In this document: piece after piece, positions 806-64,000 of the stretch
How positions within the stretch are numbered: position 1 is the stretch's first letter
Layout: each line of letters opens with the position of its first letter
Assembly: GCA_964187785.1 (NCBI GenBank)
Contig: OZ076409.1
Location: 73,410,001-73,474,000 of the forward strand
DNA: 64,000 nucleotides
Origin: Amphiscolops sp. MND2022
Taxonomy: Eukaryota
Direction of reading: 5' to 3'
Notes under the pieces: model-generated
Seen by the model: the letters and a program-made list of their open reading frames with translations, nothing else
Told to the model about the DNA's origin: nothing
Database searches by the model: none
Program-made: the position numbers and the translations under genes

Positions 806-825
806 GGGCATGCCGAGGCATGCCC
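806..825. promoter_or_regulatory. Conserved palindrome GGGCATGCCGAGGCATGCCC; p53-family response-element-like and/or hairpin (representative copy)
   Basis: It matches RRRCWWGYYY x2 with zero spacer at 19 of 20 positions and is also a perfect 9-bp inverted repeat with a GA loop. It precedes 34 of 38 junctions, e.g. 2790, 4776, 9530, 25532, 26821, 45297, 49102, 55108, 57286, 59747, 63419. Confidence 0.6.
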
Positions 826-847
826 TTCGACGACGTATGCCGAATAC

Positions 848-877
848 CGCGGGCCTACGCCCGCGCTCCCCGGCTAG
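848..877 (+). mobile_element. Helitron-like 3' terminus: GC-rich hairpin followed by CTAG (representative copy)
   Basis: CGCGGGC-CTAC-GCCCGCG (848-865) lies 8 nt upstream of CTAG (874-877). Different hairpins occupy the same place at 9579-9596, 18316-18333, 39708-39721 and 52980-52993. Confidence 0.5.
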
Positions 878-3800
878 GTGGGCGGGGGTAATTCCCCAAC
901 AAAAATTACGGCCGGCGGGTTGGGTCCTGCCGGACGTCAAATAGCAAAGAATATCTAGTAGGAAACGGCGACACAGAATCGCGATTTTTAAATCTAACCA
1001 CAATTTTTTGGACTTGGAGTGCATGCGGCCCTGAAATGCCCATACGAATCGAAGTTCCTGCTGACGTTAAGCGATTGAAATAATATATAAAAAGTTATGG
1101 CCCATTTTTGGGTCACCGAGAAGGGCAAAATGAGGAAAATTTTAACTAAGTCGCTGATAACTCAAAATGTGTTAATTTTTGGACATTGACTGTGAAACAA
1201 GCTTGGAACCTTCATTTCGTGGCTGTGGCATTGCACTGAACACAAAAGATGTAAAGTTTTTACATTTTTTGAAAATTCGACATTTTTGAATTTTTTTTCA
1301 CTAGTATCAGCACCCCATATGTCAAAAACGCCTCAGAAAAAAATTTTTATTTGCTTTAAATTGGAAACCTTGGTATCCATGGTTTCTGTCGGAACCTACT
1401 CGCAGCCAAACACCCAACAGTTTGCATCCAATGTGAAAAGAAAAATTTTTTCTGGGTCATAAGCGTTTCACAAGGATTTCTCAACTTAGTATTAATTTAC
1501 AAAATGGTCATTTTGAACACAAAATTTTCATCGAGGCTTGTCGGCTATAGGCTTAATGTTCTAGAACGGTCCCACTGGCAACGTAGGAACCATTTATAGT
1601 AATTCAAAGTTATAAAAAAATTTTTTCACCCGTTCTTCAGTCATTTTTCAGACATTCGGAACTTATCTTAGAAAAATTTCGTCTCAAACACCCGTTTTTT
1701 GACAGGTCGAAAAATCAAATTAGGATTTTTAAGCAAAATTATTATTTCTGACGTAACCCATGGGGCCCATGATACTCAAAACAACGATTGACACTGGTAT
1801 CAATGGCTCCAATAACATATGAGTCGCGATAAGACGTTATTTTGAGCAATACGTCTCAATTGAGGTAAACATCTCGCAAGCCTGGGATCACAGTGAAATG
1901 TAAATTCATCAAAAATTTACTCATTTTTGTCAATCACTATGTGCACAGAGTGCGTAGGGTGAGTTCCAGCACTATAATGAGGTTTTTGAAGGCATCGGGT
2001 TGCTCAAGGGGTGGTATGAGACATTTTTGTCCCATATACTACTGTATTTTCCAAATTTTTTAGCCCAATATCTGGGAATAGAAATTTGACAAAATACTTT
2101 CAACTACTTTATTCAGAGGTTACAATATAGATGAACACTGTGGTTGATCAGAAACTTTCATCTCTTTCGTTTTCCGAAATTTTTCTCTTCGCATGTGTTA
2201 CATTTGTAGCAGAAAAAAAGTCGATACTGAAAAATACGCTATTTTGCTAATATAGAATCGCAATGATTGTGCCTAAAAACTCTTTAAACACTTCTAACGC
2301 AACCTTACGCACCCAAAATGATCGAAAATGCTATTCACAATGGTGACATGTGCTCTTTCAACGATCCTGACTGAACAATTTTCGCAAATTATTCAAGTAC
2401 CTGTTAACTGAATCTCGTGATAGCCTTTTAAGTTGGCCTTGTGTCAACTTGGGAAGGCTATCACATCAAAAAATTTGCAACAAAAATACATTTTGTTTAT
2501 TGGAAATGACAGTCGATGTATAATTTTGTGATTCTATACTACCGTTAGTACCTTCCATTAAGTCACCTGACGATTGCATCCAGTCTTTGATAAATACCTA
2601 TGAACTCGAAGTCATATTTATAAATTTTGTGCTAAAAATAAACATAAAAATTATCCAAATTATTTAAAATTGAGTCTTTACCGTTTTTGTTTTTCTTTTT
2701 CTACTGTTATTAGGCCCATCAACTTCCTACAGCCACGCTCTCTGTCATACCGTACAACGCCACATAGTGTTGCGACGTGCACAGTCTGTGGGCATGCCGA
2801 GGCATGCCCTTCGACGACGTATGCCGAATACCGCGGGCCTACGCCCGCGCTCCCCGGCTAGGTGGGCGGGGGTAATTCCCCTTCAAAAAATTCGGCCGGC
2901 GGGTTGGGTCCTGCCGGACGTCAAATAGTGTGAAACATCCAGTAGGAAACGGCGACATAAATCAGCGATTTTAAAATTTAACCGTTAGAATTCGGACTTG
3001 GAGTGCATGCGGCCCCAAAATGCCCATACGAATCGAAGTTCCTGCTGACGTTAAGCGATAAAAACACTTTATAAAAAGTTATGGCCCATTTTACGTTCAC
3101 TTAGAGAGGTAAAATGAGGAAAATTTTAACAAAGTCGCTGATAACTCAAAATGTGTTAATTTTTGGCTTTTGACTGTGAAACAAGCTTAGAACCTTCATT
3201 TCGTGGCTGTGGCATTGCACTGAACACAAAAGATGTAAATTTTTTTAAATTTTTTGAAAATTCGACATTTTTGAATTTTTTTTCACTACTATCAGTACCC
3301 GATATGTCAAAAACACATCAGAAAATTTTTTTTATTTGCTTTAAATTGGAAACCTTGGTATCCATGGTTTCTGTCGGAACCTACTCGCTGCCAAACACCC
3401 AACAGTTTGCATCCAATGTGAATTTAAAATGTTTTTCGAGGTCATAAGGGTCTCACAAGGTTTTCATAACTTAGTATTAAACTACAAACTGGTCATTTTC
3501 AACATAATATCTTTGTCGAGGCAAGTCGGATATAGTCCTATTGCTCACGAACGGTCCTACTGGCAACGTAATAACCATTTATAGAAATGTAAAGTTATAA
3601 AAAAATTTTTCACCCGGTCTTCAGTCATTTTTCAGTCATTCGGAACTTAACTTAGAAAAATTTCGACCAAAATATCCATTTTTTGTCAGGTCGAAAAATC
3701 AAATTCAGGTTTTTAAGCAAAATTATTAACTCTGACGTAACCCATGGGGCCCATGATACTCAAAACAACGATTGACACTGGTATCAATGGCTCCAATAAC

Positions 3801-6800
3801 ATATGAGTCGCGATAAGACGTTATTTTGAGCATTACGTCTCAATTGAGGTAAAGATCTCGCAAGACAGTGATCACTGTGAAATGTGATTTCATCAAAAAT
3901 TTACTCTTTTTTGTCAATCACTATGTGTACAGAATGCGTAGGGTGCGTTTCAGCACTATAATGAGGTTTTTGAAGGCATCGAGTTGCTCAAGGGGTGGTA
4001 TGAGACATTTTTGTCCCATATACTACTGTATTTTCCAAAAATTTTAGCCCAATATCTGGAAATACAAACTTGACAAAATACTTTCAACTACTTTATTCAA
4101 AGGTTACAATATAGATGAACACTGTGGTTGATCAGAAACTTTCATCTCTTTCGTTTTCCGAATTATTTCCCTTCGCATGTGTTACATTCGTAGCAGAAAA
4201 AAAATCGAAACTGAAAAATACGCTATTTTGCTAATATAGAATCGCAATGATTGTGCCTAAAAACTCTTTAAACACTTCTAACGCAACCTTACGCACCCAA
4301 AATGATCGAAAATGCTATTCACAATGGTGACATGTGCTCTTTCTACGATCCTGGCTGGACAAGGTTTGCATATTTTTCAAGTACCTGTTAACTGAATCTC
4401 GTGATAGCCTTTTCAGTTGGCCTTGTGTCAACTTGGGAAGGCTATCACATCAAAAAACCATCAACAAAAATAGTTTTTGTTTATTGGATCTTACAGTCGA
4501 TACTTTTTTTCGTGATTCTATACTACCGTTAGTATATTTCATCAGGTCACCTTACGATTGCATTCAGTCTTTGATAAAAACCTATGAACTCAAAGTCACA
4601 TTTATATATTTTTTTGCCAGAAAATAACATAAAAAATATCTAAAATATATAAAATAGAGTCTTTAACATTTTTACGTTTCAAGTTTTTGCCGTTATTAGG
4701 CCAATCAACGTCCTAGAGCCACATCCTGCCACATACTGTACAACGCCACATAGTGTTGCGACGTGCACAGTCTGTGGGCATGCCGAGGCATGCCCTTCGA
4801 CGACGTATGCCGAATACCGCGGGCCTACGCCCGCGCTCCCCGGCTAGGTGGGCGGGGGTAATTCCCCAACTAAAAAATCGGCCGGCGGGTAGGGTCCTGC
4901 CGGCCGTCCAAAATCAAAAATATACTAGTAGAAAACGGCCGGTCAAACGAGCTATTTTTTTATTTAACCGTTAGAATTTGGGTTTAGATTGCATGCGGCC
5001 ATGAAATGGCCATACGAATCGAAGTTCCTGCTGACGTTTTGCGATTGAAACACTTTATAAAAAGTTATGGCCAATTTGTCAGTCACCTAGAAGGGCAAAA
5101 TGAGGAAAATTTTAACAAAGTCGCTAATAACTCAAAATGTGTTATTTTTTGGACTTTGACTGTGAAACAAGCTTGGAACCTTCATTTCGTGGCTGTGGCA
5201 TTGCACTGAACCCAAAAGATGTAAAGTTTTTACATTTTTTGAAAATTTGACATTTTTGAAATTTTTTTCACTACTATCAGTACCATATATGTCAAAAACA
5301 CCTCAGAAAAAAAATTTTATTTGCTTTAACTTGGAAACCTTGGTATCCATGGTTTCTGTCGGAACCTACTCGCAACCAAACAACCAACAGTTTGCATCCA
5401 ATGTGAAAATAAAAAATTTTTCTGGGTCATAAGCGTTTCACAAGGATTTCTCAACTTAGTATTAATTTACAAAATGGTCATTTTGAACACAATATTTTCA
5501 TCGAGGCTTGTCGGCTATAGCCTTAATGTTCTAGAACGGTCCCACTGGCAACGTAGGAACCATTTATAGTAATAGAAAGTTTAAAAAAATATTTTCACCC
5601 TGTCTTCAGTCATTTTTCAGTCATTCGGAACTTAACTTAGAAAAATTTCGACCAAAATACCCATTTTTTGACAGATCGAAAATTCAAATTCAACTTTTTA
5701 AGCAAAATTAGTAACTCTGACGTAACCAGTGGGGCTCATGATACTCAAAAACACGATTGGGACTGGTACCAATGGCTCCAATATCATATGAGCCGCGATA
5801 AGACGTTATTTTGAGCAATACGTCTCAATTGAGGGAAACATCTCGCAAGCCTGGGATCACAGTTAAAAGTGATTTCGTCAAAAATTTACTCTTTTTCGTC
5901 AATCACTATGTACACAGAGTGCGTAGGGTGAGTTTCAGCACTATAATGCGGTTTTTGAAGGAATCGGTCTGCTCAAGGGGTGGTATGAGACATTTTTTTT
6001 GCATGTAGTACTATATTTCTCAAAACTTTTAGCCCAATATCTCGAAAAGCTCACTTCGCAAATTACTTTCAGTTACTCTATTCGAAGCTTAGAATTTATA
6101 TGAACACTGTGGTTGATCAGAAACTCTTGACTATTTTGTTTTTGGAAAAAAACTGCCTTGCATGTGTTACATTAGTGGCAGGAAAAATACCAGTAGCTCC
6201 AAAAATCACAATTTTGGACGGACAGACCTGCAATGATGCAAAGCAAAAACGTTTCAACAACTTCTGGCGCCACTTTTTTTACCCAAGAGGTTCGAAATTA
6301 CTATTAACAATGCTGACATTCGCTATAAATAAGATCGAGGTCAATTTACTAACACTTAGGTTATACATTTATATCTGAGAAACCATTCTTTGTCAGGTCG
6401 CAATTTTAAATTTAGTTTGGGAAGCAATACTTTTCACTCTGAAGCAAACCGTTGGGCCCAAATTACTCAAAAACTACAAAAAGACTGTCACCATATGCCC
6501 TAATAGCATATGAGATTCGACCGTATGTTTTTAACACAAAAACTCTCATCCGAAGTAAACATGTTGAAAGCCTTGAATCACCGTGAGAAATGATTTCATC
6601 AAAAAATATTCCTTTTTCGTCAATCTTTATCTACACAGAACACGTTGTGTCATTTTCAGCCGTGAAATGAGCTTCTACCGTAATATGGGTTGCTCAAGGT
6701 GTTGTATAAGACAAAAACTTCCTCTTTTCTACTATCTTCTTCAAATATTTCAACCCTTTGTCACAAGAAGTTAATATTCAAAATCTCTTTGAAATGTTTC

Positions 6801-7081
6801 TTTAGGTTGGGGTGAAGTGTTAGAACAATAATTATGATCGAAGAATGATAGTATTGGTGTTTGGACCATGTCCGGATGAACAAATTGCAAAATCATGAAA
6901 AATTTCTTACCATTTTTGGTCATTTTGTCAGTACTAAAAATGTTAGCTGAAAAAGAATTTTTTGATGGCACCATTGGATTCCTCTCAAAAAGTTAGCTAT
7001 ATGAACTGTGTAATAACCCCGTATCTTTTCAATTTAAATAATTTTAAAAAGCAAACTTTTTTGACTAAAATCCTAAAAATG

Positions 7082-8425
7082 ATACCATTTCCTAAAAAAT
7101 TTCAAATGCCCCCCATTTGACGTATAAGAATAGCACAGAAAACTATCACATACCGATCGACTCTACTTCCATTGTAGATTACCAGAATTTTGTTTAGAAC
7201 AATTTTTGACGGATGCAAAAAAAATTTAAACCCTCCAAAAAAGGGCCAAAATTACACGAAAAAATTGACCTTAAAATTTTAAAATGTCGAAAAATCATCA
7301 AAACCACAGCTTCTTGGGGTTCTATCAACTACACGTGGTCCACAGAGTATGTTAAAACAAGTTTTACCCGTATTTGAGCAATATGTGAAAAAGCCGACTT
7401 TTTTGGGAATGAAAAACATACTATTTCCTAAAAAATTTCAAACGCACCCCATTTGACGTATAAGAATAGCACAGAAAACTATCACATACCGATCGACTCT
7501 ACTTCCATTGTAGGTTACCAGAATCTTGTTTAGAACAATTGTTGACGGATGCAAAAAAAAATTAAACCCTCCAAAAATGGGCCAAAATTACACGAAAAAA
7601 TTGACTTAAAATTTTAAAATGTCAAAAAATCATCAAAACCACAGCTTCTTGGGGTTCTATCAACTCCACGTGGTCCACAGAGTATGCTAAAACAGGTTTT
7701 ACATGTTTCTGAGCTATATGTGAAAAAACCGACATTTTGGGGAAGAAAAACATACCATTTCTTAAAAAATTTCAAATGCACGCCATTTGCCGTATGAGAA
7801 TAGCACAGAAAACTATCACATACCGATCAACTCTACTTCTATTGTAGATTATCAGATTTTTGTTTAGAACAAATTTTTATGGATATAAAAAATTTTTAAA
7901 CCCTCCAAAAATGAGCCAAAATAACACGAAAAAATGGACCCTAAATTTTTAAAATGTCAAAAAATTATCCAAACCACAGCTTCTTGGGGTTCTATCAGCT
8001 CCACGTGGTCCACAGAGTATGCTAAAACAGGTTTTGCCCGTTTTTGAGCAGTATATGAAAAAGCCGACATTTTTGGGGAAGAAAAACATACCATTTCCTA
8101 AATAATTTCAAATGCAGGCAATTTGCCATATGAGAGTAGCACAGAAAACTATCACACACCGATCAACTCTACTTCTTTTGTAGATTATCAGAATTATGTT
8201 TAGAGTAAAGTTTTATGGATATGAAAAATTTTTATACCCTCCAAAAATGGGCCAAAATGACACGAAAAAATTGACCTCAAATTTTTAAAATGTCAAAAAA
8301 TTATCCAAACCACAGCGTCTTGGCGTTCTATCAACTCCAAATGACCTTCAGAGTATACCAAACCAGGTATTGCCAATCTTTTGAGCAATATTTAAAAACA
8401 CCGACTATTTGGCAAGAACACCATA
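7082..8425 (+). repeat. Internal tandem repeat, 4 x ~335 bp
   Basis: ATAC(C/T)ATTTC(C/T)TAAA starts at 7082, 7418, 7752 and 8088. Copies share GAATAGCACAGAAAACTATCACA and CACGTGGTCCACAG; the fourth copy is more diverged. Confidence 0.92.
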
Positions 8426-11400
8426 ATATGTTCCATATAAGAAGTGAATCATTCCACATATATACCCGGTCTAATATTTCCAAATTAGCGATAACATTTA
8501 TACATGATGGTTTTTGAAAGTGAGCTTCATAAGAGGTTGAGATGTAATAATACGTAAATGGACCCTAAGTTTCATTGAAATCTCAATGGAATACGTCCAA
8601 TCAACTTCAATCCTAACTATTATATAACAAAAAACACTTGAGTACATTCCATCTCCCCATCGGGGGAGATGAGAATGTACTTTTCAAAAGCCAAAAACTT
8701 CGAATTTTAAATCTTTTGTAACATTGTATGTAACTGTTGAAACGATGAACGAATGAAAATGCTTCTAGTACCTTCATCAATTTTTGCTTCAGCTCCTATT
8801 TCTGCAGAACAAAACCAAAAGACACACTTACAGCAGTTAAGTTCGATTGTATAACTCAGTGAGTAAAGGTATGACTGAGGAAGTTCACAAGTTGTTTCAA
8901 AAGTTTCCGGCCTTCCAAAATCATGAAACGTCCACACAACCAAGATAGCAAGTGAAAGAATGCTGAATGCACCTTATTAGATGAGATAAATAATGTGTGG
9001 AACTTGCCATTATCTCAAGATGACGTTGATTTATGATCTTTTAAGGATAGTTCGATATGTGACCACAATAGTGGAAAACTTATTACTATTTGAAGAACAC
9101 CGTGGAAAGCGTTCAGAAAGGACAGTATATTTGTTTCGAGCATGCATGCGTGTGTTCCTTTGGTGACGTTAGCTTAGTGTACATGACGGAGGTATTCGAG
9201 AGATTATGATAGAGTTTACTCACAAGTCTTTGTTTTTTTAAACTTTCTATGCCGTTGAGTACATTCGTAAGGTACATCCATCCCCTTCTCTGGGAATGTA
9301 CGTTTGCCAAATGACTGTCATCCAAAATTCGTAATCCGGACGAGTTTAACTACATAAACATGTGATGAGCGTTTTCAATTCACAACCGAATAACATTTTT
9401 TTCTCGAAAATGATGATGGTTTTGATTTTGATGTCTTCTACTTTTATCATCATGCAAACGACCTTACCATGTCTCTCTTCTGTCGTCATTTGTACAACGC
9501 CACATAGCGTTCCGACGCCCACCGTCTGTGGGCATGCCGAGGCATGCCCTTCGACGACGTATGCCAAATGAGCCATACCCGCACTCTGGAGTGCGGTAGC
9601 GGCTAGGTGGGCGGGGGTAATTCCCCTTCAAAAAATTCGGCCGGCGGGTTGGGTCCTGCCGGACGTCAAATAGTGTGAAACATCCAGTAGGAAACGGCGA
9701 CATAAATCAGCGATTTTGAAATTTAACCGTTAGAATTCGGACTTGGAGTGCATGCGGCCCCAAAATGCCCATACGAATCGAAGTTCCTGCTGACGTTAAG
9801 CGATAAAAACACTTTATAAAAAGTTATGGCCCAATTTACGTTCACTTAGAGAGGTAAAATGAGGAAAATTTTAACAAAGTTGCTGATAACTCAAAATACA
9901 ATAATTTTTGGCTTTTGACTGTGAAACAAGCTTGGAACCTTCATTTCGTGGCTGTGGCATTGCACTGAACACAAAAGATGTAAAGTTTTCACATTTTTTG
10001 AAAATTCGACATTTTTGAATTTTTTTTCACTACTATCAGTACACTATATATCAAAAACACCTCTGAAAAATTTTTTTTTTGCTTAAATTTAGAAACCTCG
10101 GTATCCATGGTTTCCGTCAGTACCTACTCGCTGCCAAACACTCAACAGTTTGCATCCAATGTGAAAATAAAATTTTTTTCGAGGTCTTAGGTGTTTCACA
10201 AGGATTTCTCAACTTAGTATCAATTTACAAATTGGTCATTTTGAACACATTATTTTCATCGAAGCGTGTCATATACCGCCCTAATGCTCACGAACGGGCC
10301 TACTGGCAACGTTGGAACCATTTATAGTAATAAAAAGTTTTAAAAAAATTTTTTCACCCCGTCTTCAGTCATTTTACACACTTTCGGAACTTAACTTAGA
10401 AAAATTTCAACCAAAAACCCATTTTTTGTCAAGTCGAAAATTCAAATTCAGCTTTTTAATCAAAATAAATAAATCTGACATAACCAGTGGGGCCCATGAA
10501 ACTCAAAACCACGATTGAGACTGGTATCAATGGCTCCAATAACATTTGAGTCGCGATAAGACGCTATTTTGAGCAAAACATCTCAATTGAGGTAAAGATC
10601 TCGCAAGCCAGCGATCACTGTGAAATGTGATTTCATCAAAAATTTACTCTTTTTTGTCAATCACTATGTGCACAGAATGCGTAGGGTGCGTTTCAGCACT
10701 ATAATGAGGTTTTTGAAGGCATCGAGTTGCTCAAGGGGTGGTATGAGACATTTTTGTCCCATATACTACTGTAGTTTCCAAAATTTTTACCCCAATATCT
10801 GGAAATACAAACTTGACAAAATACTTTCAACTACTTTATTCAAAGGTTACAATATAGATGAACACTGTGGTTGATAAGAAACTTTCATCTCTTTCGTTTT
10901 CGGAAATATTTCCGTTCGCATGTGTTACATTCATAGCAGAAAAAAAAATCGAAACTGAAAAATACGCTATTTTGCTGATATAGAATCGCAATGATTGTGC
11001 CTAAAAACTCTTTAAACACTTCTAACGCAACCTTACGCACACAAAATGATCGAAAATGCTATTCACAATGGTGACATGTGCTCTTTCTACGATCCTGGCT
11101 GGACAAGGTTTGCATATTTTTCAAGTACCTGTCAGCTAAATCTTGTGATAGCCTTTTCAGTTGGCCTTGTGTCAACTTGGGAAGGCTATCACATCAAAAA
11201 ACTATCAACAAAAATAATTTTTGTTTATTGGATCTTACAGTCGATACTTTTTTTCGTGATTCTATACTACCGTTAGTATATTTCATCAGGTCACCTTACG
11301 ATTGCATTCAGTTTTGATAAAAACCTATGAACTCAAAGTCACATTTATATATTTTTTTGCCAGAAAATAACATCAAAAATATCTAAAATATATAAAATAG

Positions 11401-13826
11401 AGTCTTTAACATTTTTACGTTTCAAGTTTTTGCCGTTATTAGGCCAATCAACGTCCTAGAGCCACATCCTGCCACATACTGTACAACGCCACATAGTGTT
11501 GCGACGTGCACAGTCTGTGGGCATGCCGAGGCATGCCCTTCGACGACGTATGCCGAATACCGCGGGCCTACGCCCGCGCTCCCCGGCTAGGTGGGCGGGG
11601 GTAATTCCCCAACAAAAAAATCGGCCGGCGGGTCGGGTCCTGCCGGCCGTCCAAAATCAAAATCCTCCTAGTAGAAAACGGCATGTCAAACGAGCTATTT
11701 TTTTATTTAACCATACGAATTTCACCATTTTTTGCATGCGGCCCTGAAATGGCCATACGAGACGAAGTTCCTGCTGACGTTTTGCGATGTAAATGTTTTA
11801 TAAAAAGTTATGGCCGATTTGTCATTCACCTAGAAGGGTAAAGTGAGGAAAATTTTAACAAAGTCGCTGATAACTCAAAATGTGGTAATTTTTGGACTTT
11901 GACTGTGAAACAAGCTTGGAACCTTCATTTCGTGGCTGGGGCATTGGATTGAACACAAAAGATGTAAAGTTTTTACATTTTTTGAAAATTTGACATTTTT
12001 GAAATTTTTTTCACTACTATCAGTACCATATATGTCAAAAACACCTCAGAAAAAAAATTTTATTTGCTTTAACTTGGAAACCTTGGTATCCATGGTTTCT
12101 GTCGGAACCTACTCGCAACCAAACAACCAACAGTTTGCATCCAATGTGAAAATAAAAAATTTTTCTGGGTCATAAGCGTTTCACAAGGATTTCTCAACTT
12201 AGTATTAATTTACAAAATGGTCATTTTGAACACAATATTTTCATCGAGGCTTGTCGGCTATAGCCTTAATGTTCTAGAACGGTCCCACTGGCAACGTAGG
12301 AACCATTTATAGTAATAGAAAGTTTAAAAAATATATTTTCACCCTGTTTTCAGTCATTTTTCAGTCATTCGGAACTTAACTTAGAAAAATTTCGACCAAA
12401 ATACCCATTTTTTGACAGATCGAAAATTCAAATTCAACTTTTTAAGCAAAATTAGTAACTCTGACGTAACCAGTGGGGCTCATGATACTCAAAAACACGA
12501 TTGGGACTGGTACCAATGGCTCCAATATCATATGAGCCGCGATAAGACGTTATTTTGAGCAATACGTCTCAATTGAGGGAAACATCTCGCAAGCCTGGGA
12601 TCACAGTTAAAAGTGATTTCGTCAAAAATTTACTCTTTTTCGTCAATCACTATGTACACAGAGTGCGTAGGGTGAGTTTCAGCACTATAATGCGGTTTTT
12701 GAAGGAATCGGTCTGCTCAAGGGGTGGTATGAGACATTTTTTTTGCATGTAGTACTATATTTCTCAAAACTTTTAGCCCAATATCTCGAAAAGCTCACTT
12801 CGCAAATTACTTTCAGTTACTCTATTCGAAGCTTAGAATATATATGAACACTGTGGTTGATCAGAAACTCTTGACTATTTTGTTTTTGGAAAAAAACTGC
12901 CTTGCATGTGTTACATTAGTGGCAGGAAAAATACCAGTAGCTCCAAAAATCACAATTTTGGACGGACAGACCTGCAATGATGCAAAGCAAAAACGTTTCA
13001 ACAACTTCTGGCGCCACTTTTTTTACCCAAGAGGTTCGAAATTACTATTAACAATGCTGACATTCGCTATAAATAAGATCGAGGTCAATTTACCAACACT
13101 TAGGTTATACATTTATATCTGAGAAACCATTCTTTGTCAGGTCGCAATTTTAAATTCAGTTTGGGAAGCAATACTTTTCACTCTGAAGCAAACCGTTGGG
13201 CCCAAATTACTCAAAAACTACAAAAAGACTGTCACCATATGCCCTAATAGCATATGAGATTCGACCGTATGTTTTTAACACAAAAACTCTCATCCGAAGT
13301 AAACATGTTGAAAGCCTTGAATCACCGTGAGAAATGATTTCATCAAAAAATATTCCTTTTTCGTCAATCTTTATCTACACAGAACACGTTGTGTCATTTT
13401 CAGCCGTGAAATGAGCTTCTACCGTAATATGGGTTGCTCAAGGTGTTGTATAAGACAAAAACTTCCTCTTTTCTACTATCTTCTTCAAATATTTCAACCC
13501 TTTGTCACAAGAAGTTAATATTCAAAATCTCTTTGAAAGGTTTCTTTAGGTTGGGGTGAAGTGTTAGAACAATAGTTATGATCGAAGAATGATAGTATTG
13601 GTGTTTGGACCATGTCCGGATGAACAAATTGCAAAATCATGAAAAATTTCTTACCATTTTTGGTCATTTTGTCAGTACTAAAAATGTTAGCTGAAAAAGA
13701 ATTTTTTTGATGGCACCATTGGATTCCTCTCAAAAAGTTAGCTATATGAACTGTGTAATAACCCCGTATCTTTTCAATTTAAATAATTTTAAAAAGCAAA
13801 CTTTTTTGACTAAAATCCTAAAAATC

Positions 13827-53003: not shown

Positions 53004-56000
53004 GTGGAGGTTATTATATATCAATTAAAGTGTTTTTTTCCGGAGTTTGTGGCTTTGGAAAAAACAAAAGGCGAGAAATTGGGCACTCCAGGCTGAACCT
53101 AAAAACACCCTAAAATTGGCCCGATTTTTTTACGATCTCGAAACCCAGCCGTACGATTTGGCTGAAATTTTGCATGTGGCTCCTAATCAATGAGTAATGA
53201 AAAAGTGTAGGAGTGACTTTTCCTGGGAAAATTGTTTTTGTTGCATTTTTTGCGCAATTTTTGACCGATTGTTGCGTTTTTTATGTCACTTTTGACTTTT
53301 CAGGCAAAAAACTCATGGATGCTTTGATCCTAGCGCATCAAGTGTTTCGACCAAAAAGTTGCAGCATGTTCTTTTACGTATGTTGAGAAAATTTGGTTGC
53401 CATCGTATTACCCCCCACTGAGATAGAGGGGAACTTCCGGTGGAATTTAGGACCCTAAAAACGAGGACCTCCTAAATTTCAGCATGAAGCGGTAGTTTTA
53501 GCGTGCTCATACCCTGCTGAAACTTTGTTGGCCATAATGAGATAGTCATGATATCATGTGTTCAGTTCAACCCCCATCACCCCCTGGACCGGAAATGAAC
53601 TTTTTTGTGCACTATCATACCGGAAGTCTCCAATTTCACCGTTAAGCAGTCCTTGTACGAGCAACTACCAGGACATCAAAATTGAAAAACCACCTGAGGT
53701 CAACATAGTGACTACGTGTTGTCCAGTCATAGGTTCCGCTATGACCGGAAATGGGGTCAAAAGCCCCTATTTTGGTTGTTTTTTAACAATTTTACTAGTG
53801 TTTGGTCCACATTCAAGTCGCGTAAGTCAATTGAATCAGTGTGAGCAAAAACTGTATGTTCACTGCGTAGACGTAACTGACACTGGCAGATACCGGAAGT
53901 AACCCCCCGTGACCGGAAGTTGCCAGTTTCGACCGGAAATGGTCCAAAATGTAGCGTAAAACTAGTTTTTTACTGCTTTTTAAAGTCAACTTATTACTTT
54001 TTCAATCTCCGCGAGCTTGTAATCAGGTTCGTTTTTGTTACCCGTGCACTTTGCAACAAATATACATCTGTAAAAGTTTCTCTATAATATCGTCGGATAG
54101 AGAAATAACGTGTTTTTGGGACTTTTTTTCAAAAATATTAGACTATATCTGTCATTTTTACTCAAAGTTTTTCAACTGTACAACCACAGTATTTAGTCTC
54201 TGCCCAAATTTTTGCCTAACAAAACTATTTGGCCCATTGGCTTTAGTTTGAGCGTTCCAGCTTTGCGTGATCATAAGCTAAAGGACTTGAAAAATTTTCA
54301 AACTTTTTTCAAAAAAAACTTCTCACATTCATATCTCCCAAAGTGAAGAAACTTCCACACAATTAGGATTGCAAGTGGATGCACGTGGCAAGCCCTATAA
54401 TTGAAGAGAAAAATGCCGCATAGAACGTCTCTTTATCGTAACTTGACGTTAACGTATGGTGCTTTGAATGAGAGCTTGATAAGAGGTCGAGAAGTCAAAG
54501 TGTGTAAATGGAACGTATTTCTCGTCGAAAACTCACCGGAATTCATGCAATGAACCCCAATTGTTCTAAATTGCAGTTGCCTACTGCAACAACGTCTTTC
54601 TGGTTCATTTACCCATTTTCATAAGTGTCAAAATTATTTTTGAATTCAGTTAGCAAGAAACACTTGAGTACATTTTCATCTCTCCCAAGCGGGTGAGATG
54701 AGAATGTTCTTGCTAAAAGCCAGGTACTACGTCCCACTTTTGTTTTAATGCGACACATCCTCTGCTTTAGCACATAGATAGTTTATTTTGCCTGATTTTT
54801 TGGATACTCTCTGACTTGTTATTATAAACTTCTCGTCATTACTTTACATGAATTTACAACCATAAAGCGTTATCGTCAACTCCACATACATTTAGACGCC
54901 CACCATTCCGTAGGTATGTCGAGGCATACCTTTCGATTTCGTATGTCAAAACGCAAACGCGATAAAAAGTGCTGAAATTCTGAAACAGTGATAAACAATT
55001 CTGACAATTTGACATATGGTAGGTTTTTATATGGAACTTAGACATCACTGACATTTCACAACATTCCAGCTGACGCCCACATACCAACATCAACGCCCAC
55101 CGTCCGTGGGCATGCCGAGGCATGCCCTTCGACGACTTATGCCAGTTATTTATATCTACACCCAATTGCGGTAGCCGCTAGGTGGATGGTATTTTATAAC
55201 AATTAAAGTGTTTTTTTCCGGAGTTTGTGGCTTTGGAAAAAACAAAAGGCGAGAAATTGGGCACTCCAGGCTGAACCTAAAAACACCCTAAAATTCGCCC
55301 GATTTTTTTACGATCTCGAAACCCAACCGTACGATTTGGCTGAAAATTTGCATGTGGCTCCTAATCAATGAGTAATGAAAAAGTGTAGAAGTGACTTTTC
55401 CTGGGAAAATTGTTTTTGTTGCACTTTTTGCGCAATTTTTGACCCATTGTTGCGTTTTTTATGTCACTTTCGACTTTTCAGGCAAAAAACTCATAGATGC
55501 TTTGATCCTAGCGCATCCAGTGTTTCGACCAAAAAGTTGCAACATGGTCTTTTACGTACGTTGTGAAAATTTGGTAGCCATCGTATCACCCCCCACTGAG
55601 TTAGAGGGGAACTTCCGGTGGATTTTAGCACCCTAAAAACAAGGACCTCCTAAACTTCAGCATGAAGCCGTAGTTTTAGCGTGCTCATAACCTGCTGAAG
55701 TTTTGTTGGGCATGTTGAGATAGTCATGATAGCATGTGTTTAGTTCACCCCCCATCACCCCCTGGACCGGAAATGAACTTTTTGTGCACTATCATTCCGG
55801 AAGTCTCCAGTTTCACCGTTAAGCAGTCCTTGTACGAGCAACTACCAGGTCATCAAAATTGAAGTACCACCTGAGGTCAACGTAGTGACTACGTGTTGTC
55901 CAGTCATAGGTTCCTCTATGACCGGAAATGGGGTCAAAACCCCCTTTTTTGGTTGTTTTTTAACAATTTGACTAGTGTTTGGTCCACAATCAAGTCGCGT

Positions 56001-57360
56001 AAGTCCATTGAATCAGTGAGAGCAGAAATTGTATGTTCACTGCGTAGACATAACTGACTCTGACAGATACCGGAAGTAACCCCCCGTGACCGGAAGTTGT
56101 CATTTTTGACCGGAAATGGTCCAAAATAAAGCGTAAAATCAGTTTTTCACTGCTTTTTAAAGTCAACTTATTACTTTTTCAATCTTCGCGAGCTTGTATT
56201 CAGATTCGTTTGTGTTACCCGTGCACTTTGCAACGAATATACATCTGTAAAGTTTTCTCTATATTATAGTCTGATAGAGAAATAACGTGTTTTTGGGACT
56301 TTTTTCAAAATTATTAGACTATATCTGTCATTTTGACCCAACGTTATTCAACAGTACAACCACAGTGGTTAGTCTCTGCCCAAATATATGCCTAACAAAA
56401 CTATTTGGCCCATTGGCCTCAGTTTGAGCGTTCCAGCTTTGCGTGTTCATTAGCTAAGGGACTTGAAAAATTTTCAAACTTTTTCAAAAAAAATTTTTTC
56501 TCATATTTTTGTCTCCCAGAGTGAAGAAACTTTCACACAACTAGGATTGCTACTGGATGCATGTGGCAAGCCCTATAATTGAAGGGAAAAATTCCGCTTA
56601 GAACGTCTCTTTATCGTAACTTGACGTTAACGTATGGTGCTTTGAATGAGAGCTTGATAAGAGGTCGAGAAGTCAAAGTGTGTGAATGGAACGTATGTCT
56701 CGTCGCAAACTCATCGGAATACATGCAATGAACCCCAATTGTCCTGAATTGCAGTTGCCTACTGCAACAACGTTTTTCTGGTACATTTTACTCTTTTTCA
56801 TAAGTGTCAAAATTAGTTTTAAATTCAGTTAGCAAGAAACAATTGAGTACATTTTCATCTCTCCCCAGCGGGTGAGATGAGAATGTTCTTGCTAAATGCC
56901 AGGTACTACGGCCTCCTTTTGTTTTATTGCGATGCATTCTCTGCTTCAGCACATAGATATTTTATTTCGCTTGATTGTTTGTATACTCTCTGACTTGTTA
57001 TTATAAATTTCTCGTCATTACTTTACATAAATTTGCAACCATGAAACGGTATCGTCAACGCCACATACATTTAGACGCCACCATTCCGTAGGTATGTCGA
57101 GGCATACCTTTCGATTACGTATGTCAAAACGCAAACGCGATAAAAAATGCTGAAAGTCTGAAACAGTGACAAACAATTTTGACTATTTGACATATGGTAT
57201 GTTTTTATATGGAAGTTACGCATCACAGACATTTCACAACTTTCCAGCTGACGCCCACATACCAACATCAACGCCCACCGTCCGTGGGCATGCCGAGGCA
57301 TGCCCTTCGACGACGTATGCCAATTTCTATATATCTACACCCAATTGCGGTAGCAGCTAG
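53004..57360 (+). mobile_element. Two tandem ~2.18-kb units with a duplicated 3' module
   Basis: Spacings are 2178 and 2179. Each has the ETS-motif module, a diverged 1.28-kb-family module, a type B hairpin and two palindrome copies 196 bp apart. Confidence 0.6.
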
Positions 57361-58430
57361 GTGGTCAAGGGGGATGCCCATCAGAAAATATTGCGAGGCC
57401 GGGGAGGGTCCCGAGAGCCGAGCACATTCTATCAATTCCTACCTTCAGGATTGCGAAGTATTTTAACCGATCTCGAAATTCACCCGTAGGATTTGTCTGA
57501 AACTTTGCATGTGGCTTTATCTCAAAAATTTAAGAACTTTTTTCTGCTGACGTTTTTCCAGGAAAATTCATTTTGTAGGGTTTTTTTGCGTTTTTTTGGT
57601 TTTTTTCATCTTTTTTCATCTTTGATTAATCAATGACCGAATCAAAGGCCATTTTCACCATGAAGGAAAGCCCGTAGCGGCAAAGTGCACTTTTATGAAA
57701 ATCATCAACGGTCAACGGTCTTTCGAACGGTCCGAAAAAATTTCCCCCCGGGGGAAACCAAAGTGCCAAAAAGTGCCAAATATATTTTTTTGACTGAATC
57801 ACTTTGATCAAATTGATGATTTGAGCAGCCGGAACGGTCCGCACGGTCTCGGACAATAAGGTCAAAAATTGTCAGCATCCAATGGGGGTTCCAAAAATGT
57901 AATTCGTTCATTTGTAGGAGACATCAGAAAAAAGTTGATTTTTTGGGGTATATGTCATTATGAGTGATTGGATGAGAAATAATTGTATCACTTTCAGTTG
58001 GATATGATGCAGCACAGGAAGCAGCTGCAGCAAACTTGAAACTGATTATGGGGCTGGGGTTTACCCTCTGTATTGAGCAAAATAGCCCTAGGGCATAAGT
58101 TGTGCCAAAAAATGCCTCGAAGTGATGATTTGGTTATTGCAAATCGATCAGCAAAATTTATTGTCACCGGTGTTCCGAGAGTTGCGCAGCATCTCGCAGG
58201 AACAACGGTGCTTGCTTAGAAAGCAAAAAACCACAAAATCCCTTGAGTTAAGTTGACGGCAGTCACCATAGACATTCACTCGTCAGGGTGATGATATTTA
58301 TCGTTCAATCCCAGAATAACTTACAAAAAATTGCTAGCGTCAATATTTCTTTTTCATACTCCATTAGCAAAGGTTGCGCTGTTAAGTTTAGGCCTTTTAC
58401 TAGCAGTGCTCTAAATCGCTCCATCGCTAG
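57361..58430 (+). mobile_element. 1070-bp unit with conserved 5' end and unique interior
   Basis: Bounded by CTAGGTG at 57357 and 58427. It has GGGGAGGGTCC at 57401 and a GGATTTGTCTGAAACTTTGCATG box near 57490, but no palindrome and no type A/B hairpin. Confidence 0.55.
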
Positions 58431-59818
58431 GTGGTTGGGGCGGTCCCCAGAACGCACAAGGAGGCGCGGGGAGGGTCCTGCGCCGACGTAGAATAATTTC
58501 ATATAATACTAGTATCCTACATGGGTGTTTTAGAGGCGATTTTGGAATCTAACCGTAGGATTTGGATAATTTTTTGCATGCGGCCATAACTCGAAATTCT
58601 AAGAACTTTTTCCTACTGTCATTTTCCCCGCAAATTGTTTTTTGTTGACTCATGGCCGAAAAACCGGAAATAACGTCCTTTTTAGACGTTATATCCGAAG
58701 TGTCGTCATAACTTTTTTCCAGGGCATGCTAGCGTTCTCGTTCACTTTTACACTTAGTTGCAGCATCTCAAAATACAACTGGTGGAAAATTTTGGTTGCA
58801 TTCGGATCACCCCCCACCAAGTTAGAAGGGTTCCCCCCTCCAGTTTTACCCCCCAAATTTGCAAAATAGCCAAATTTGAGCATGAAGCCGAGGATTTAGC
58901 GTACCCGCACTCTCCTGATGTTTTGTTGTACGTATTGGGGTCAATCTGACGACATGTGTGGTTTTCACCCCCAACCCCCCCTTGGACCGGAAATGACACT
59001 TTTTTGTGTTTTTTGGCAGAATTTAGCCTTTTTCATTATTAGGCAGTCGTTTTAGGGACTCCTAGCAGGATATCGAAATTGAAATACAACCTGATCACAA
59101 CCCAGTGACAACATGTTGGCCACTTGGAGGTATCATCATGACCGGAAGTGGGGTCAACCCCCCTTTTTGTGACCGCTTTTTGACCTTGTGCACCAAAATG
59201 CCAACATCTTGAGGCCTAATGAGGCATTCAAATCTGTACAAAGATAAAATGTTAGACAACCGAAGCCCGGAAGATCTTTAGCATATACCGGAAGTTACCC
59301 CCTATGACCGGAAGTTACCCAATGTGACCGGAAATGGTCCAAAAATTATTGTAAAGTTGAATTTTTCACTATTTCAAAACCACTTAATTGAAACTTTTCA
59401 ATCTCAAAACTAGCGTACTGGCTTGTTTTGCTGAATTTATGGAAATTGATGAGCTCTATCGCCCCCGATAGCCTTCGAAGTTGACCTTGCGTCAACTTTG
59501 GAGGCTATCGATAAAGAAAAATGAACAACAAAGTACATTGTTGCTCTCGTTTTTCTCCCGTTGTTTTTCCTCAAACATTCTTGAGACATATACATGGCCG
59601 TTAGTTGAAATCAATATTCAGCCCATGTTATAGCTGGAGCAGCGAAGCGTTACACAGACTAGTGTGGTTTTGAAATCACACTATTTATATTAACAACTGA
59701 CCGTCTTAGTCAACTCCACACACTCATACCAACGCCCACCGTCTGTGGGCATGCCGAGGCATGCCCTTCGACGACGTATGACGAATCCATTCCAACGACA
59801 CCCGCAGTCCTCAGCTAG
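58431..59818 (+). mobile_element. 1388-bp unit with ACCGGAAR cluster and type A hairpin
   Basis: Diverged homologue of 43976-45366, with the hairpin at 59466-59510 and the palindrome at 59747. Confidence 0.6.
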
Positions 59819-62196
59819 GTGGTCGGGGCGCTCTCCCAACCTCTTCCGCCGCCTCGGGGAGGGTCCTGATTGGCGGCACCCCTTATGGAAAACTTACTGT
59901 TAGAAACGCACCAGTGTAATGCTGATTTCGAAAACCACCCGTACGATTTTGCTCAAATTTTGCATGTAGCTCCCAAATTCCAATACAAGAACTAATTCCT
60001 ACTGCCATTTTTCCGGGAAAACTCAAAAAGTTGGTCAAAAATGACATTTTCTGAGTGAAAAATGGCCATTTTTTGACTTTTTTATTTTTGATCGGCTATA
60101 ACTTTTTCCAGGGTGCTCGGATCGAAAAAAGTTTGTATAGGTAAAGTTGTTTGGCACTTCGAGTAGAACTCGTAGACAAATTTTGGTTGAGATCGGATGA
60201 AAATTGACTGAGAAATAACCGAAAAACCATCGATTTTTTGAAAAAAATTTTGACACACTAGTATGACTCTGCCGTTTTTCGGCCAAAGTTCTTTCTAGAA
60301 CCTCGTCTAAAGTCCTCCCCTGGCTGAATTACCTCCCAGCAAAACCATTTGGCCCATTTGCCGAAGTTTCAGCGTTCCAGCATTCCCCGGGTAAAAGATA
60401 AATGACTTAGAATTTTTACAAAAAAATTTCAAAAAAAAATTTTTTTTCTTCAAGCTTCCCAAAGTCAAGGAACTTCCACACAACTAGTATTGCAAGTGAA
60501 TGCATGTGGAAAGTGCTTGAATAGACGAGAAAAATGAGCTATAGAACGACTCTGTAGCTTAACCTGACGTTGACTTATGACAATTTGAGTGCGTGCTTGC
60601 TATGTGGCGAAATTGAGGAACAACCTAAAATGAAAGCTAAGTCTGATCTAAAACTTACCGAATTGCTTTTATTCAGCCCCAAAGCTGTTCAATTGCCGCT
60701 ATGTAGTGCAGCAACACTATCCAAGGCTTTTTAGGACGTTTTTAAGATGTCATTATGTTCTTTTTGGACAGTTTTTTTTGTACAAATAGGACTTTATTTT
60801 TCGGGACCTAACACTTTTTGCCAAAAAAGTCAAACTTCGTCCACACAACTTAGATTGCAAGTGAATGCATGCGGAGAGTGCATGAAGTGATGAGGAAAAT
60901 GAGCTATAGAACGCCCGTTTCCGACAACTTGACATGGACTTATAAGAGTTTGAAAAATCACAAAAAAAATGAACAACAATTCACTAACAGTGAGTTTGTA
61001 GTAAATGGCCCATATTTCCATACACAAGATTCTCAGCACAATTCTATACCTTTTCGTTTTTGTTGTCCGTGATTGTGCAAAAAATAAGTATTGGTAAAAG
61101 TTTCTGTAAAACATCGCCGGAAAGAGAAAAATGCGGAGTTTATGAGTAATTTTGTTTGAAAAATGACAAAATAGTCTATCTCTGCCGTTTCAGCACAAAT
61201 TTTTTAAAAAAAGACGCCCAGTAGGTAACCCATGGGCTAATTTCGTCTCAACAAAACGGTTGGGGTCATTTGCCGCAGTTTTAGCTTTATAGCATTCTCC
61301 GGGTAAAAGTTGTTGAACTTAGAAAATTTTTGAAATTTTTTCAAAATTTTTTTTAACTTCAGGCGGCCCAAAGTCAAGAAACTTCCACACAACTAGGATT
61401 GCAAGTAGATGCATGTGGAAAGCCCAGTAATTGGGGAGAAAAATGCCGTTTAGAACGTCTCTTTATCGTAACTTGATGTTGACTTATGATTCTTTAAATG
61501 GGAGCTTGATTTGAGGTTAAGAAGTCAAAGTGTGTAAATGGAACGTAAGTCTGGTCAAAAACTCATTGGAATACATGCAATGAACCTCAACTTATCCTCA
61601 ATTACAGTTGTCTAGTGCAAAGGTCTTTCAAAGTTGTTTCACTTCTTTTGATAAGTGTTGATGGTATAAACCATCAGTTATAGAGAAACACGTAAGTACA
61701 TTCTCATCTCTCCCCATCGGGGGAGATGAGAATGTACTCACCAAAGGTCAAAACTACTAAATGCCTTTTTTCTGTACCATTTTATGTCACTGTCGAAACA
61801 AACATAAACAAATTAGTTTCCGACTCCTCCTTGGGGTTTTGGTTTGACTTCTGTAAAAAAAAGGGTACGAGGACTTGGAGATCTTTTAAGTGTTCCAAAA
61901 GAGACCTCCTATTTCACACCGTGGAAAACTTGAAGACATTTGTCATGAAATCACCTACTAGGCTTCTCTCTGAGTACGCAAGTTCAATAAGTAACACATT
62001 TTATCTTCCATATTTGCTCCGATGACCAGGATTGGAAACTAAATTAACCCAAGGTACTTAGCCAAAACGAGCAATACCAACTTTTGATTGAAAACCTCAT
62101 CACAGTTTTTCTTTGAAAATTACCTTCATTGACTTCTCAATTTATCAACTCAATCTCCTTAAGCGGCCCTATTTTGACACAAGCCTGCAGCGCTAG
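59819..62196 (+). mobile_element. 2378-bp unit with a triplicated internal module and unique 3' end
   Basis: The CCACACAACT...TTGCAAGT..ATGCATG module occurs near 60476, 60841 and 61385. A type B hairpin lies near 61695-61739, and there is no palindrome before CTAG at 62193. Confidence 0.55.
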
Positions 62197-64000
62197 GTGC
62201 CCGGATTTCTATTCATTAAAGTATGTTGCGCGTGTGGGTAGGGCCCCGTGGCGCGCTCTTGTGTCCCTGTTCTCATAACTGCAATTTCCGGCAGCATTCT
62301 GAGCGATTTTCTAAACTATCCATACGATTCGGCTGAAATTTGGCACACGTACCCCCCTCGGCACGGTGAAGATGATTTCCTACTGACGTTTTTCCCGCAA
62401 AATTTTTTTGTTGTCCAAAATAACGGTTTTTGGGGTAAAATTTTGAACTTTTTTTAAATTTCATCTTATATCTCGCCACGGGTTTACGCTAGCGCTTCAA
62501 AACCCTGCTAAAGAAAGCTTGCAAACTGTCTCAGGAATGCGGTGTGAAATTTTCAGCACAATCGGACTTAAACTCGGGGAGATATAGCGTTTTTCCGGAG
62601 CGGGGGGGTTTCATTTTTCTAACGGTCCAGCTTATCTTAGCCATTTTTTCGAAAATGTACTCGCCTAAAGACCTCCCCTGGCCGGTTTTATTCCCAGCAA
62701 AACCATTTGGCCCTAAATACGGAGTTTCAGCGTTCCAGCATTCCCGGGCGAAAAGTTGTGGGACTTAGAAAATTTCAAAAATTTTCAAAAAAATTTTTTC
62801 CGTTTTCCGCCCTCCCCCCCGAGGGGAAAAGACCCCCCAACCAGTAATTTGAGTGAATTCATGTGGAAAGGCCATGTTTAGAGGAGAAAAATCCCGTTTA
62901 AATCGTCTTTTTATCTTTATTCAACGTTGACTTATGACGTTTTGAAGGTGATGTTTGGAGGTGTGAAGCCCGTGAAAAGTAAACGTTATGAGTATTTATC
63001 TGATCTGAAAGCCATTGAGATGAAACCTGTTTTGCTCAAAACGTAATTCATATCAGTTTGGTAGTCAATCAACACCCTTTGTTGTCATTTGACATCTTTT
63101 TTTGTTGATATAAGAAAAAATTTCGTGTATTTATTCATTTTTTTCTCATCAAATAACTTGAAACAGTTGAGTACATTCCATCCCCCCTTCACGGGGGAGA
63201 TGAGAATGTACTCGCAAAAAGCCCCAAACTACGGCCCTTACCTTCCCGAGCTACGCAGTATAAAGATTGCATATTGGTTCCGACATTTTGATAGAGTTAT
63301 ATCTTGGTAATCTGTCTGGATACGCAGAAAAACCAGCACGTGCTTTTTTTACCAAGTTGCTTACAACGACATTTATTTTATATCAACGCCCCCATCTTTA
63401 TCAACGCCCCCCGTCCGTGGGCATGCCGAGGCATGCCCTTCGACGACGCGCACCAAAATTTTCCCCGAGCGCGTTAGCCTAGGTGCCCGGATTTCTATTC
63501 ATTAAAGTATGTTGCGCGTGTGGGTAGGGCCCCTGGCGCGCTCTTGTGTCCCTGTTCTCATAACTGCAATTTCCGGCAGCATTCTGAGCGATTTTCTAAA
63601 CTATCCATACGATTCGGCTGAAATTTGGCACACGTACCCCCCTCGGCACGGTGAAGATGATTTCCTACTGACGTTTTTCCCGCAAAATTTTTTTTGTTGT
63701 CCAAAATAACGGTTTTTGGGGTAAAATTTTGAATTTTTTTTAAATTTTATCTTATATCTCGCCACGGGTTTACGCTAGCGCTTCAAAACCCTGCTAAAGA
63801 AAGCTTGCAAACTGTCTCAGGAATGCGGTGTGAAATTTTCAGCTCAATCGGACTCAAACTCGGGGAGATATAGCGTTTTTCCGGAGCGGGGGGGTTTCAT
63901 TTTTCTAACGGTCCAGCTTATCTTTGCCATTTTTTCGACAATGCACTCGCCTAAAGGCCTCCCCTGGCCGGTTTTATTCCCAGCAAAACCATTTGGCCCT
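62197..64000 (+). mobile_element. ~1.28-kb family units resume (one full, one partial)
   Basis: The body is nearly identical to the units at 25596 and 30750; spacing is 1286. Confidence 0.6.

Follow-up and report, generated by a model that had tools for sequence, protein, structure and literature searches.

Helitrons are rolling-circle transposons that carry a 3' CTAG with a hairpin upstream of it and capture neighboring DNA by read-through (PMC4778049). In Helraiser the 3' hairpin serves as a terminator whose loss leads to read-through, and the element forms circles with exact head-to-tail joints (PMC4778049). Head-to-tail pairs of different Helitrons have arisen in maize through consecutive insertion (PMC2267711), and tandem whole elements are mentioned in PMC7492417. 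Sites for host factors are found in C. elegans Helitrons (PMC8896005), functional p53 sites in the zebrafish non-autonomous DNA transposon EnSpm-N6_DR (PMC3485254), and p53 sites in the long terminal repeats (LTRs) of primate endogenous retroviruses (ERVs) (cited in PMC3485254 and PMC8896005). Here we analyze 64,000 nucleotides (nt) from Amphiscolops sp. MND2022 (assembly GCA_964187785.1, contig OZ076409.1, positions 73,410,001 to 73,474,000, forward strand), hereafter the window. The window is a one-way stack of differing non-coding transposon units whose end-to-start joins are exact, and most of these units carry, shortly before the 3' end, a 20-nt sequence (the 20-mer) that an earlier note on this DNA described as a near-perfect response element for the p53 family. 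We asked what this 20-mer is kept for and how the units that carry it compare with known elements.

The array comprises several unit families with sizes of about 1.1 to 4.8 kb, and all units have one orientation, a self-comparison giving 1 minus-strand match among 1,872. All 38 joins contain the 7-mer CTAGGTG, within which we place the boundary (written CTAG/GTG, the slash marking the join), and none of them shows a spacer, a 5' truncation, or an inversion; neither an A nor an extra T stands between units. Only 38 of the 145 CTAG sites serve as junctions. Two minus-strand copies of the 7-mer, at 5084 and 11827, lie inside family-A units and are not junctions. Among junctions right of 24 kb, the tail of one unit (30 nt before CTAG) and the head of the next (60 nt after GTG) are hardly correlated (r = 0.10, p = 0.08, n = 29), and none of seven same-tail pairs shares the next head; the head of a unit and its own tail, 1.1 to 2.4 kb apart, are correlated at r = 0.56 (p = 0.0002, n = 28), the permutation p-values being rough, as they take no account of kinship between units. 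In 18 family-B units, flank linkage is r = 0.32 to 0.80 over six internal conserved blocks and r = -0.08 over the junction. Seventeen pairs of units are at least 90% identical, and in 16 of them the preceding tails are no more than 70% alike. Between unlike neighbors, the common sequence may shrink to CTAG on the left of the junction and GTG on its right. The junction is the true boundary of the units. Since homologous recombination within 7 nt cannot yield this linkage pattern, the joins appear to have arisen by precise insertion or site-specific exchange.

As the earlier note had counted, the 20-mer occurs in 34 plus-strand copies from 806 to 63438, set against 38 junctions; 32 copies are exact, and the other two are the variants that it had listed at 33263 and 52930. 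The expectation by chance is 0.02 matches, and 0 of 100 shuffled sequences reached 34, although the copies are not independent, being descended from related units. A scan of metagenomes in which only the flanks were specified and any 20-mer was allowed returned one match, too few for a count of variants. It is a 1,172-nt record (OBOP01004400.1, hereafter L001) that is about 70% identical to the window units inside and more than 90% identical at the 20-mer and its flanks. L001 contains a 20-mer variant beginning with A and ending with T, an internal hairpin that is also found in the window, a CGAG/GTG junction, and the head of a next unit. Both the conserved sequence and head-to-tail joining thus exist beyond this assembly. 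L001 also has a 16-nt inverted repeat (88%; 782-797 and 913-928) across the junction, where the region upstream of the conserved sequence pairs with the next 5' hairpin; the units of the window have no counterpart to it.

That the 20-mer is the most conserved long motif of the array also proved right. It is common to 32 to 33 of 39 segments (k = 12 to 28), the next motif reaching at most 25, and no 20-column window ranks above it on a tree built from L001 and the 3' regions of 19 family-B units (3.7 substitutions per site, a mean of 2.25 changes per column; approximate, as units recombine). On this tree the 20-mer has undergone 5 changes where about 45 were expected. The conservation extends beyond it. 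An invariant block of about 35 nt, of which the 20-mer is the core, runs from 6 nt before to 9 nt after it, and these 15 flanking bases, which are no part of a p53 site, show 2 changes against about 34 expected. Within the 20-mer, positions 2, 9, 11, 12, and 19 are unchanged (about 11 changes expected), whereas positions 1 and 20 have changed, always together (in one window unit and in L001; one or two events), as has position 10, in the loop. Every stem change seen in the block keeps base pairing, and each arm of the 20-mer is a palindrome of its own, 8 bp long, with a 10-bp period. The distance from the end of the 20-mer to the junction is 43 to 58 nt. The block is clearly under strong selection, which spans 35 nt rather than the 20-mer alone. 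A CAACG-type motif lies about 16 to 17, 34 to 36, and sometimes 41 to 42 nt upstream of the 20-mer (at 770-800, and likewise before most blocks); these repeats resemble spaced protein-binding repeats at an origin.

The units carry three conserved hairpins. In the first, near the 5' end, the stem covaries freely below a fixed top: pairing with own flanks gives -8.9 kcal/mol, against -6.6 kcal/mol when the flanks are exchanged between units (permutation p = 1e-5 for 19 representatives). Single-strand folding therefore matters to the units. Since this 5' stem varies freely, a purely structural stem would be expected to vary, and the p53-like stem does not. Units u32 and u33 (53004-53060 and 55182-55240) lack the G-rich top of the 5' hairpin and keep the GTG start and the 5' core. 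The arms of the long internal hairpin are almost unchanging among families and in L001, with 8 changes in 33 columns against about 74 expected on the tree; a few of the changes are paired. Neither the internal hairpin nor the 5' hairpin, conserved as they are, has any likeness to a p53 site.

A profile search added two copies of the 20-mer, at 54912 and 57090, which the first reading of the sequence had missed; they were the sole further copies. In both, all 9 stem pairs can still form, one of them as G-T through a third change. Since the two units that hold them, u32 and u33, are 93% identical, we count the copies as one event; three random changes that keep all pairs, including one double change, have a probability of 0.02 to 0.04. 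Pairing kept while the CWWG cores are broken was the pattern that the earlier note had set against its own p53 interpretation, and it does occur in these two related copies. It speaks faintly, at a probability of about 0.02 to 0.04 for a single event, because selection may no longer act on these copies and palindromes are able to self-correct. Four unit ends, representing three lineages, lack the block. Added 3' modules trail the decayed blocks of u32 and u33 and the cut block of u24, and these three units fit a history of read-through or repair followed by the capture of a new end.

How well does the 20-mer answer to a p53 site? The consensus is RRRCWWGYYY twice, with a spacer of 0 to 13. The 20-mer agrees with it at 19 of 20 positions, with a spacer of 0 and with C4 and G7 intact in 34 of 34 terminal copies. 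"Near-perfect" is fair to that extent, but no copy is a full match, since position 10, a pyrimidine in the consensus, is G or A here; the window holds no strict consensus match. Binding by human, fish, frog, and fly p53-family proteins relies chiefly on positions 4 and 7, whereas positions 1, 2, 9, and 10 matter little (PMC2807882). In a host with a p53-family protein, the 20-mer would, judged from its letters, make a strong site, and accessible copies would then likely be bound. At the level of sequence the p53 interpretation of the earlier note is thus partly supported, but p53 alone fails to explain the conservation: a site kept for p53 would have fixed cores with outer positions and flanks free, and here the flanks and the tolerated positions are nearly or wholly unchanged.

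We postulate that the 35-nt block is a subterminal signal read by the mobilizing enzyme, a proposal to which we give about an even chance. The earlier note had offered a recognition site of the mobilizing enzyme as its alternative, and this fits better than p53, as the flanks are as invariant as the 20-mer; that stem changes all preserve pairing also speaks for it. Together with the mechanism outlined next, the corresponding view of the units, as non-autonomous rolling-circle (Helitron-like) transposons with a non-canonical 5' end, seems to us as apt to be right as wrong. An HUH (RepHel-type) enzyme supplied by a partner elsewhere would nick at the junction, and one strand would be displaced or copied from the 5' end (GTG or TG) to the 3' CTAG. 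The enzyme would pause at the 35-nt block, which it or a partner protein might read both by sequence and as a folded single strand or cruciform, and would cut after CTAG 43 to 58 nt further on. The copy, or its circle, could then be joined at a resident end-to-start junction bearing the same signals; each insertion would rebuild the target, and a mixed one-way array would grow. Where the signal has decayed or been cut off, the enzyme may read through, and the unit may acquire another 3' module. In the chromosome, the site may also be occupied by a p53-family protein, without this being the reason for its retention. Because neighbors are unlinked over the 7-mer and units are linked inside, insertion would be precise and beside resident ends, as in Helitron-like elements; because the 5' hairpin covaries, the units probably work through folded single strands. 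A possible analogy is offered by Rep proteins that integrate at origin-like sites. What the sequence shows directly is the anatomy of the array, the boundary of the units, the pattern of conservation, and the covariation of the 5' hairpin; the enzyme, the transfer of the strand, and the role of the block as a terminator are inferred.

Several observations weigh against this proposal. No transposase or autonomous partner was found in the 41 of 71 window frames scanned or in the viral, prokaryotic, and metagenome scans. The units do not begin with TC, and their junctions show no A/T target, so that two traits that define canonical Helitrons are not seen here. The Helraiser hairpin lies about 11 nt from the end, not 43 to 58 nt, and a stem swap left Helraiser about 90% of its activity, whereas the stem here is invariant (PMC4778049). 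An 8-bp palindrome in each arm with a 10-bp period is unneeded by a plain hairpin and needed by a dimer-of-dimers protein. Only a small number of compensatory events is seen (one or two at 1:20 and one at 4:17), palindromes can correct themselves through template switching, and the permutation p-values ignore kinship among units. The four ends without a block still sit in the array.

In another explanation, the 20-mer is bound by a tetramer of the host p53/p63/p73 family and is kept because the element depends on being bound; we think this possible though rather unlikely. Standing 43 to 58 nt upstream of the next 5' end in the array or in a circular intermediate, bound p53 might make chromatin accessible or initiate transcription over the nicking site and so tie movement to germline or DNA-damage states, while the flanks might be where the transposase or another host factor binds next to it; we hold these particulars with the same reserve. 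All 34 intact copies and L001 agree with the consensus at 19 of 20 positions, have both CATG cores, and lack a spacer. Such a fit is rare among random hairpins: of those with a 9-bp stem and a 2-nt loop, 2 to 4 in 10,000 reach 19 or more consensus positions, and fewer than 1 in 10,000 do so with CATG cores. Arms with a 10-bp period have the layout of a dimer of dimers, changes in intact copies fall only at positions 1, 10, and 20, which p53-family proteins tolerate (PMC2807882), and broken cores are limited to copies no longer at a unit end. Pairing and binding need not be alternatives, as p73 and p53 favor sites able to form cruciforms (PMC5905954), and EnSpm-N6_DR provides a precedent (PMC3485254). 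The constraint is nevertheless wider and tighter than p53 needs, in that the five tolerated positions show 0 of about 11 expected changes and the flanks 2 of about 34. Positions 1 and 20 change only jointly, and the internal hairpin without p53 likeness is kept nearly as strictly. The scanning of many windows also selects striking coincidences.

The free assortment on both sides of an invariant 7-nt core, one per junction, could also be the mark of a tyrosine recombinase, with the units as Crypton-like or integron-like cassettes, CTAGGTG as the crossover core at which circles integrate, and the block as an accessory protein site. Cryptons have terminal direct repeats of 4 to 6 bp (PMC3212892), and the block can be divided into 13+8+13 nt, its arms matching at 9 to 10 of 13 positions, where known sites have arms of 11 to 13 bp and a spacer of 6 to 8 bp. 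We nonetheless consider this improbable by a wide measure: no inverted arms of 11 to 13 bp flank the 7-mer, exchange occurs at the 7-mer (r = -0.08) and is weaker in the 13+8+13 block (r = 0.32), the core differs in L001, and no recombinase gene was seen among the frames scanned. The CTAG ends, internal satellites, and added 3' modules suit rolling-circle elements better. An integron-like pairing of the junction with bases just upstream of the block, a further candidate, fails in several families and cannot covary. Less probable still, and in our view very unlikely, is that the block is kept as part of a structured RNA or is homogenized by gene conversion as the longest identical stretch. Three conserved hairpins per unit would suit the former, and mosaic units with partly swapped tails are what conversion produces; yet no Rfam family reached its gathering score anywhere in the 64 kb, and a scan of a 5.9-kb part (22309-28166) gave nothing beyond nine sub-threshold matches, none of them on the block. 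Local conversion cannot explain why the block is kept in L001, which is about 70% identical elsewhere, and the marks that would suggest an RNA intermediate (a poly(A) tail, a truncated 5' end, a duplicated target) are absent. In an informal comparison by eye, the cores of ribozymes (hepatitis delta virus [HDV]-like, hammerhead, and pistol) did not fit.

The anatomy of the array adds to this picture, and its features are collected in the table below. Likeness within families A and B is 65 to 99%, and the 2-kb family-A units can be aligned with family B at their ends only; right of the family-B zone, units are more divergent and composite. Units that resemble one another tend to lie close together (Spearman -0.48 across all 37 units and -0.25 for u10-u28), and neighbors are rarely of the same subfamily, with half of the 11-mers in common in only 2 of 36 adjacent pairs. 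This last count led us to reject simple satellite amplification, just as 38 junctions without a truncated 5' end or tail led us to reject non-LTR retrotransposition. The zoning over 878-63482 (A left, B in the middle, divergent and composite units right), with likeness dropping with distance, could be a record of successive insertion waves, as in polarized arrays. Unit interiors are mosaic, and gene conversion, visible in them and in partly swapped tails, acts on the units too.

Several units are built from pieces of others. In units u03 and u05, a 5' part from family A is combined with a 336-nt satellite and with pieces of family B in rearranged form; the two have both neighbors in common and may be the product of a block duplication. 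In the composites u32 and u33 (53004-57360) a 5' half like that of u25 is joined to a family-B-like 3' half, and in the composite u36 (59819-62196) a module of family B is present two to three times, its copies having diverged. Unit u34 (57361-58430) has only the 5' hairpin and the 5' core in common with other units, the rest matching nothing in the window; it lacks the block and is a candidate for captured host DNA. The window has a GC content of 40%, without CpG depletion, and 71 stop-to-stop frames of at least 90 amino acids. Among the 41 of these frames that were scanned, none reached the Pfam cut-off, and two gave weak matches to domains of unknown function below it.

Features of the analyzed window (positions are those of the 64,000-nt stretch; u, unit number along the array)
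Feature	Position	Strand	Remarks
Head-to-tail array of non-coding units	1..64000	+	37 complete units (1070-4761 nt) and 2 partial ones; no spacer DNA; array exceeds both window ends
First unit junction, CTAG/GTG	874..880	+	One of 38; linkage lost here
Other 37 junctions (start positions)	2858, 4844, 9603, 11587, 16348, 18340, 20324, 22305, 24284, 25592, 26880, 28163, 29476, 30746, 32032, 33324, 34592, 35875, 37165, 38455, 39732, 41014, 42294, 43972, 45363, 46631, 47897, 49162, 50444, 51723, 53000, 55178, 57357, 58427, 59815, 62193, 63479	+	
First 35-nt 3' subterminal block	800..834	+	Stem-loop core is the p53-like 20-mer, 806-825; 34 copies, last 20-mer 63419-63438
Variant 20-mer	33263..33282	+	Change at position 10, the hairpin loop; tolerated by p53
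Variant 20-mer	52930..52949	+	u31; paired change at 1 and 20 (G-C to A-T); same variant in L001
Decayed upstream 20-mer	54912..54931	+	u32; paired change at 4 and 17 breaks both CATG cores; no junction behind; intact block 196 nt later
Decayed upstream 20-mer	57090..57109	+	u33; same 20-mer as at 54912
Unit end without block	50380..50447	+	u29; still ends CTAG/GTG
Other ends without block	u30 (ends 51726), u34 (58430), u36 (62196)	+	All still end CTAG/GTG
Internal cut 3' end	43460..43494	+	u24; u14-like, cut 7 nt before the 20-mer start; followed by another 3' module that has a block and a junction
5' hairpin, example	909..935	+	About 40 nt after the junction; G-rich top fixed, stem freely covarying; top behind 36 of 38 junctions
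Internal long hairpin, example	25281..25324	+	Stem length about 20 bp; seen at 28 places (27 units), plus L001 565-607
Family A zone	878..24287	+	u01-u09, about 2 kb each, two of them enlarged to 4.76 kb
Family B zone	24288..49165	+	u10-u28, about 1.3 kb each; mosaic subfamilies, order mixed
Internal tandem repeat, 4 x 336 nt	7082..8410	+	In u03; second copy 13821-15155 in u05

Scans of viral and of prokaryotic contigs for an autonomous RepHel partner with both ends gave 0 matches each. Contigs from a sequencing run that cover 25990-27290 comprise 12 pieces, most of them at least 90% alike and none bridging the junction there, and three such contigs exit the block with other tails; their depth is low, and we did not use them as evidence. 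The 18-nt core string is absent from the literature searched, which describes neither the element nor any p53 site that different rolling-circle families have kept (subscription journals, supplements, and Repbase lie outside that search and may hold such a description).

Target choice and end reading by Helitron-type elements are poorly known, and at least 38 exact mixed-family joins with free assortment at a 7-nt junction are a clean natural record of self-targeted insertion. The 35-nt block is a small cis-element that lends itself to experiment, and whether it serves p53 or a transposase can be tested directly. We also entertain, as an improbable but consequential speculation, a rolling-circle lineage with non-canonical 5' ends that homes to its own junction, builds mixed zoned arrays, and has its propagation wired to the host p53 family; a near-optimal, cruciform-capable site 43 to 58 nt upstream of the nicking site might let germline or post-damage p53/p63 activity license transposition, which we rate no higher. 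If true, this would be a transposon that needs the guardian of the host genome in cis, conserved across families and species. Were p53 binding under selection, the view of p53 as a repressor of transposons, or of its sites as passengers, would be reversed, and the array's density of about one strong site per 1.9 kb could affect free p53 levels. Were it not, the block would be a warning that transposon hairpins can mimic p53 sites.

Set against published definitions (PMC11417382, PMC4067079), the units appear to work like non-autonomous Helitrons and yet belong neither to the canonical group, HLE1, nor to HLE2. With HLE1 they share the 3' CTRR, in the form of CTAG at 38 of 38 ends if the cut lies after CTAG (CGAG in L001). 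The 5' TC of HLE1 is replaced by GTG behind CTAG at 38 of 38 junctions, and the conserved hairpin ends 43 to 58 nt before the junction, a closer hairpin being predicted in some tails only. The subterminal inverted repeats of HLE2 (11 to 17 bp) were not found: the longest inverted match within a unit is 6 to 10 nt, like cross-unit controls, and wider windows gave 14.97 for own and 15.03 for other units (p = 0.58). The T-rich ends and T/T target of HLE2 are likewise lacking, with CTAG/GTG at all 38 junctions. A short terminal direct repeat, as in Cryptons, could be seen in the 7-mer common to every junction, which might just as well represent joined termini. The 5' core may resemble HINE/Lep1-type cores.

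Canonical Helitrons, Helraiser, and the maize r1 pair resemble the window units in their 3' CTAG, subterminal hairpin, and lack of a target duplication or terminal inverted repeat (PMC4778049, PMC11417382, PMC2267711), as well as in internal tandem repeats, signs of 3' read-through, and exact end-to-start joins of different elements. Unlike this group, the window units begin with GTG (or TG) rather than TC, show no A/T target at their junctions, have an invariant-stem hairpin 43 to 58 nt from the end and an extra covarying 5' hairpin, and form at least 38 consecutive mixed-family joins instead of pairs or clonal repeats. Helentrons with their HINE relatives and Helitron2 (HLE2; DINE-1, oyster Cg_HINE) are alike in being non-coding, with hairpins near both ends and central tandem repeats (PMC4067079, PMC7492417, PMC11417382) and with ends common to families less than 70% identical, but the window units have a CTAG end and neither subterminal inverted repeats nor T-rich flanks or a T/T target. 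The short direct repeats at the ends of Cryptons and Replitrons (4 to 6 bp) could match the 7-mer, and Replitrons have a right-end hairpin (PMC3212892, PMC10288648); mixed tandem arrays are not reported for them in the available excerpts, and the window units are without fuzzy right ends or a visible enzyme. EnSpm-N6_DR and primate ERV LTRs share p53-type sites with the window, and EnSpm-N6_DR is also non-autonomous with many copies (PMC3485254, PMC8896005). Those sites belong to one family, are dispersed, about 93% conserved, and functionally tested (PMC3485254), whereas the window site, which we know from its sequence, is near-invariant across unalignable families, has a set place before the 3' end, and is arrayed. 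The telomere-targeted Helitrons of Paramecium aurelia share a specific target, absolute strand bias, stacking, and internal satellites (PMC13085455). They differ in lying in telomeric repeats and in having autonomous copies (PMC13085455); in the window, no repeat separates the units, and the target seems to be their own junction.

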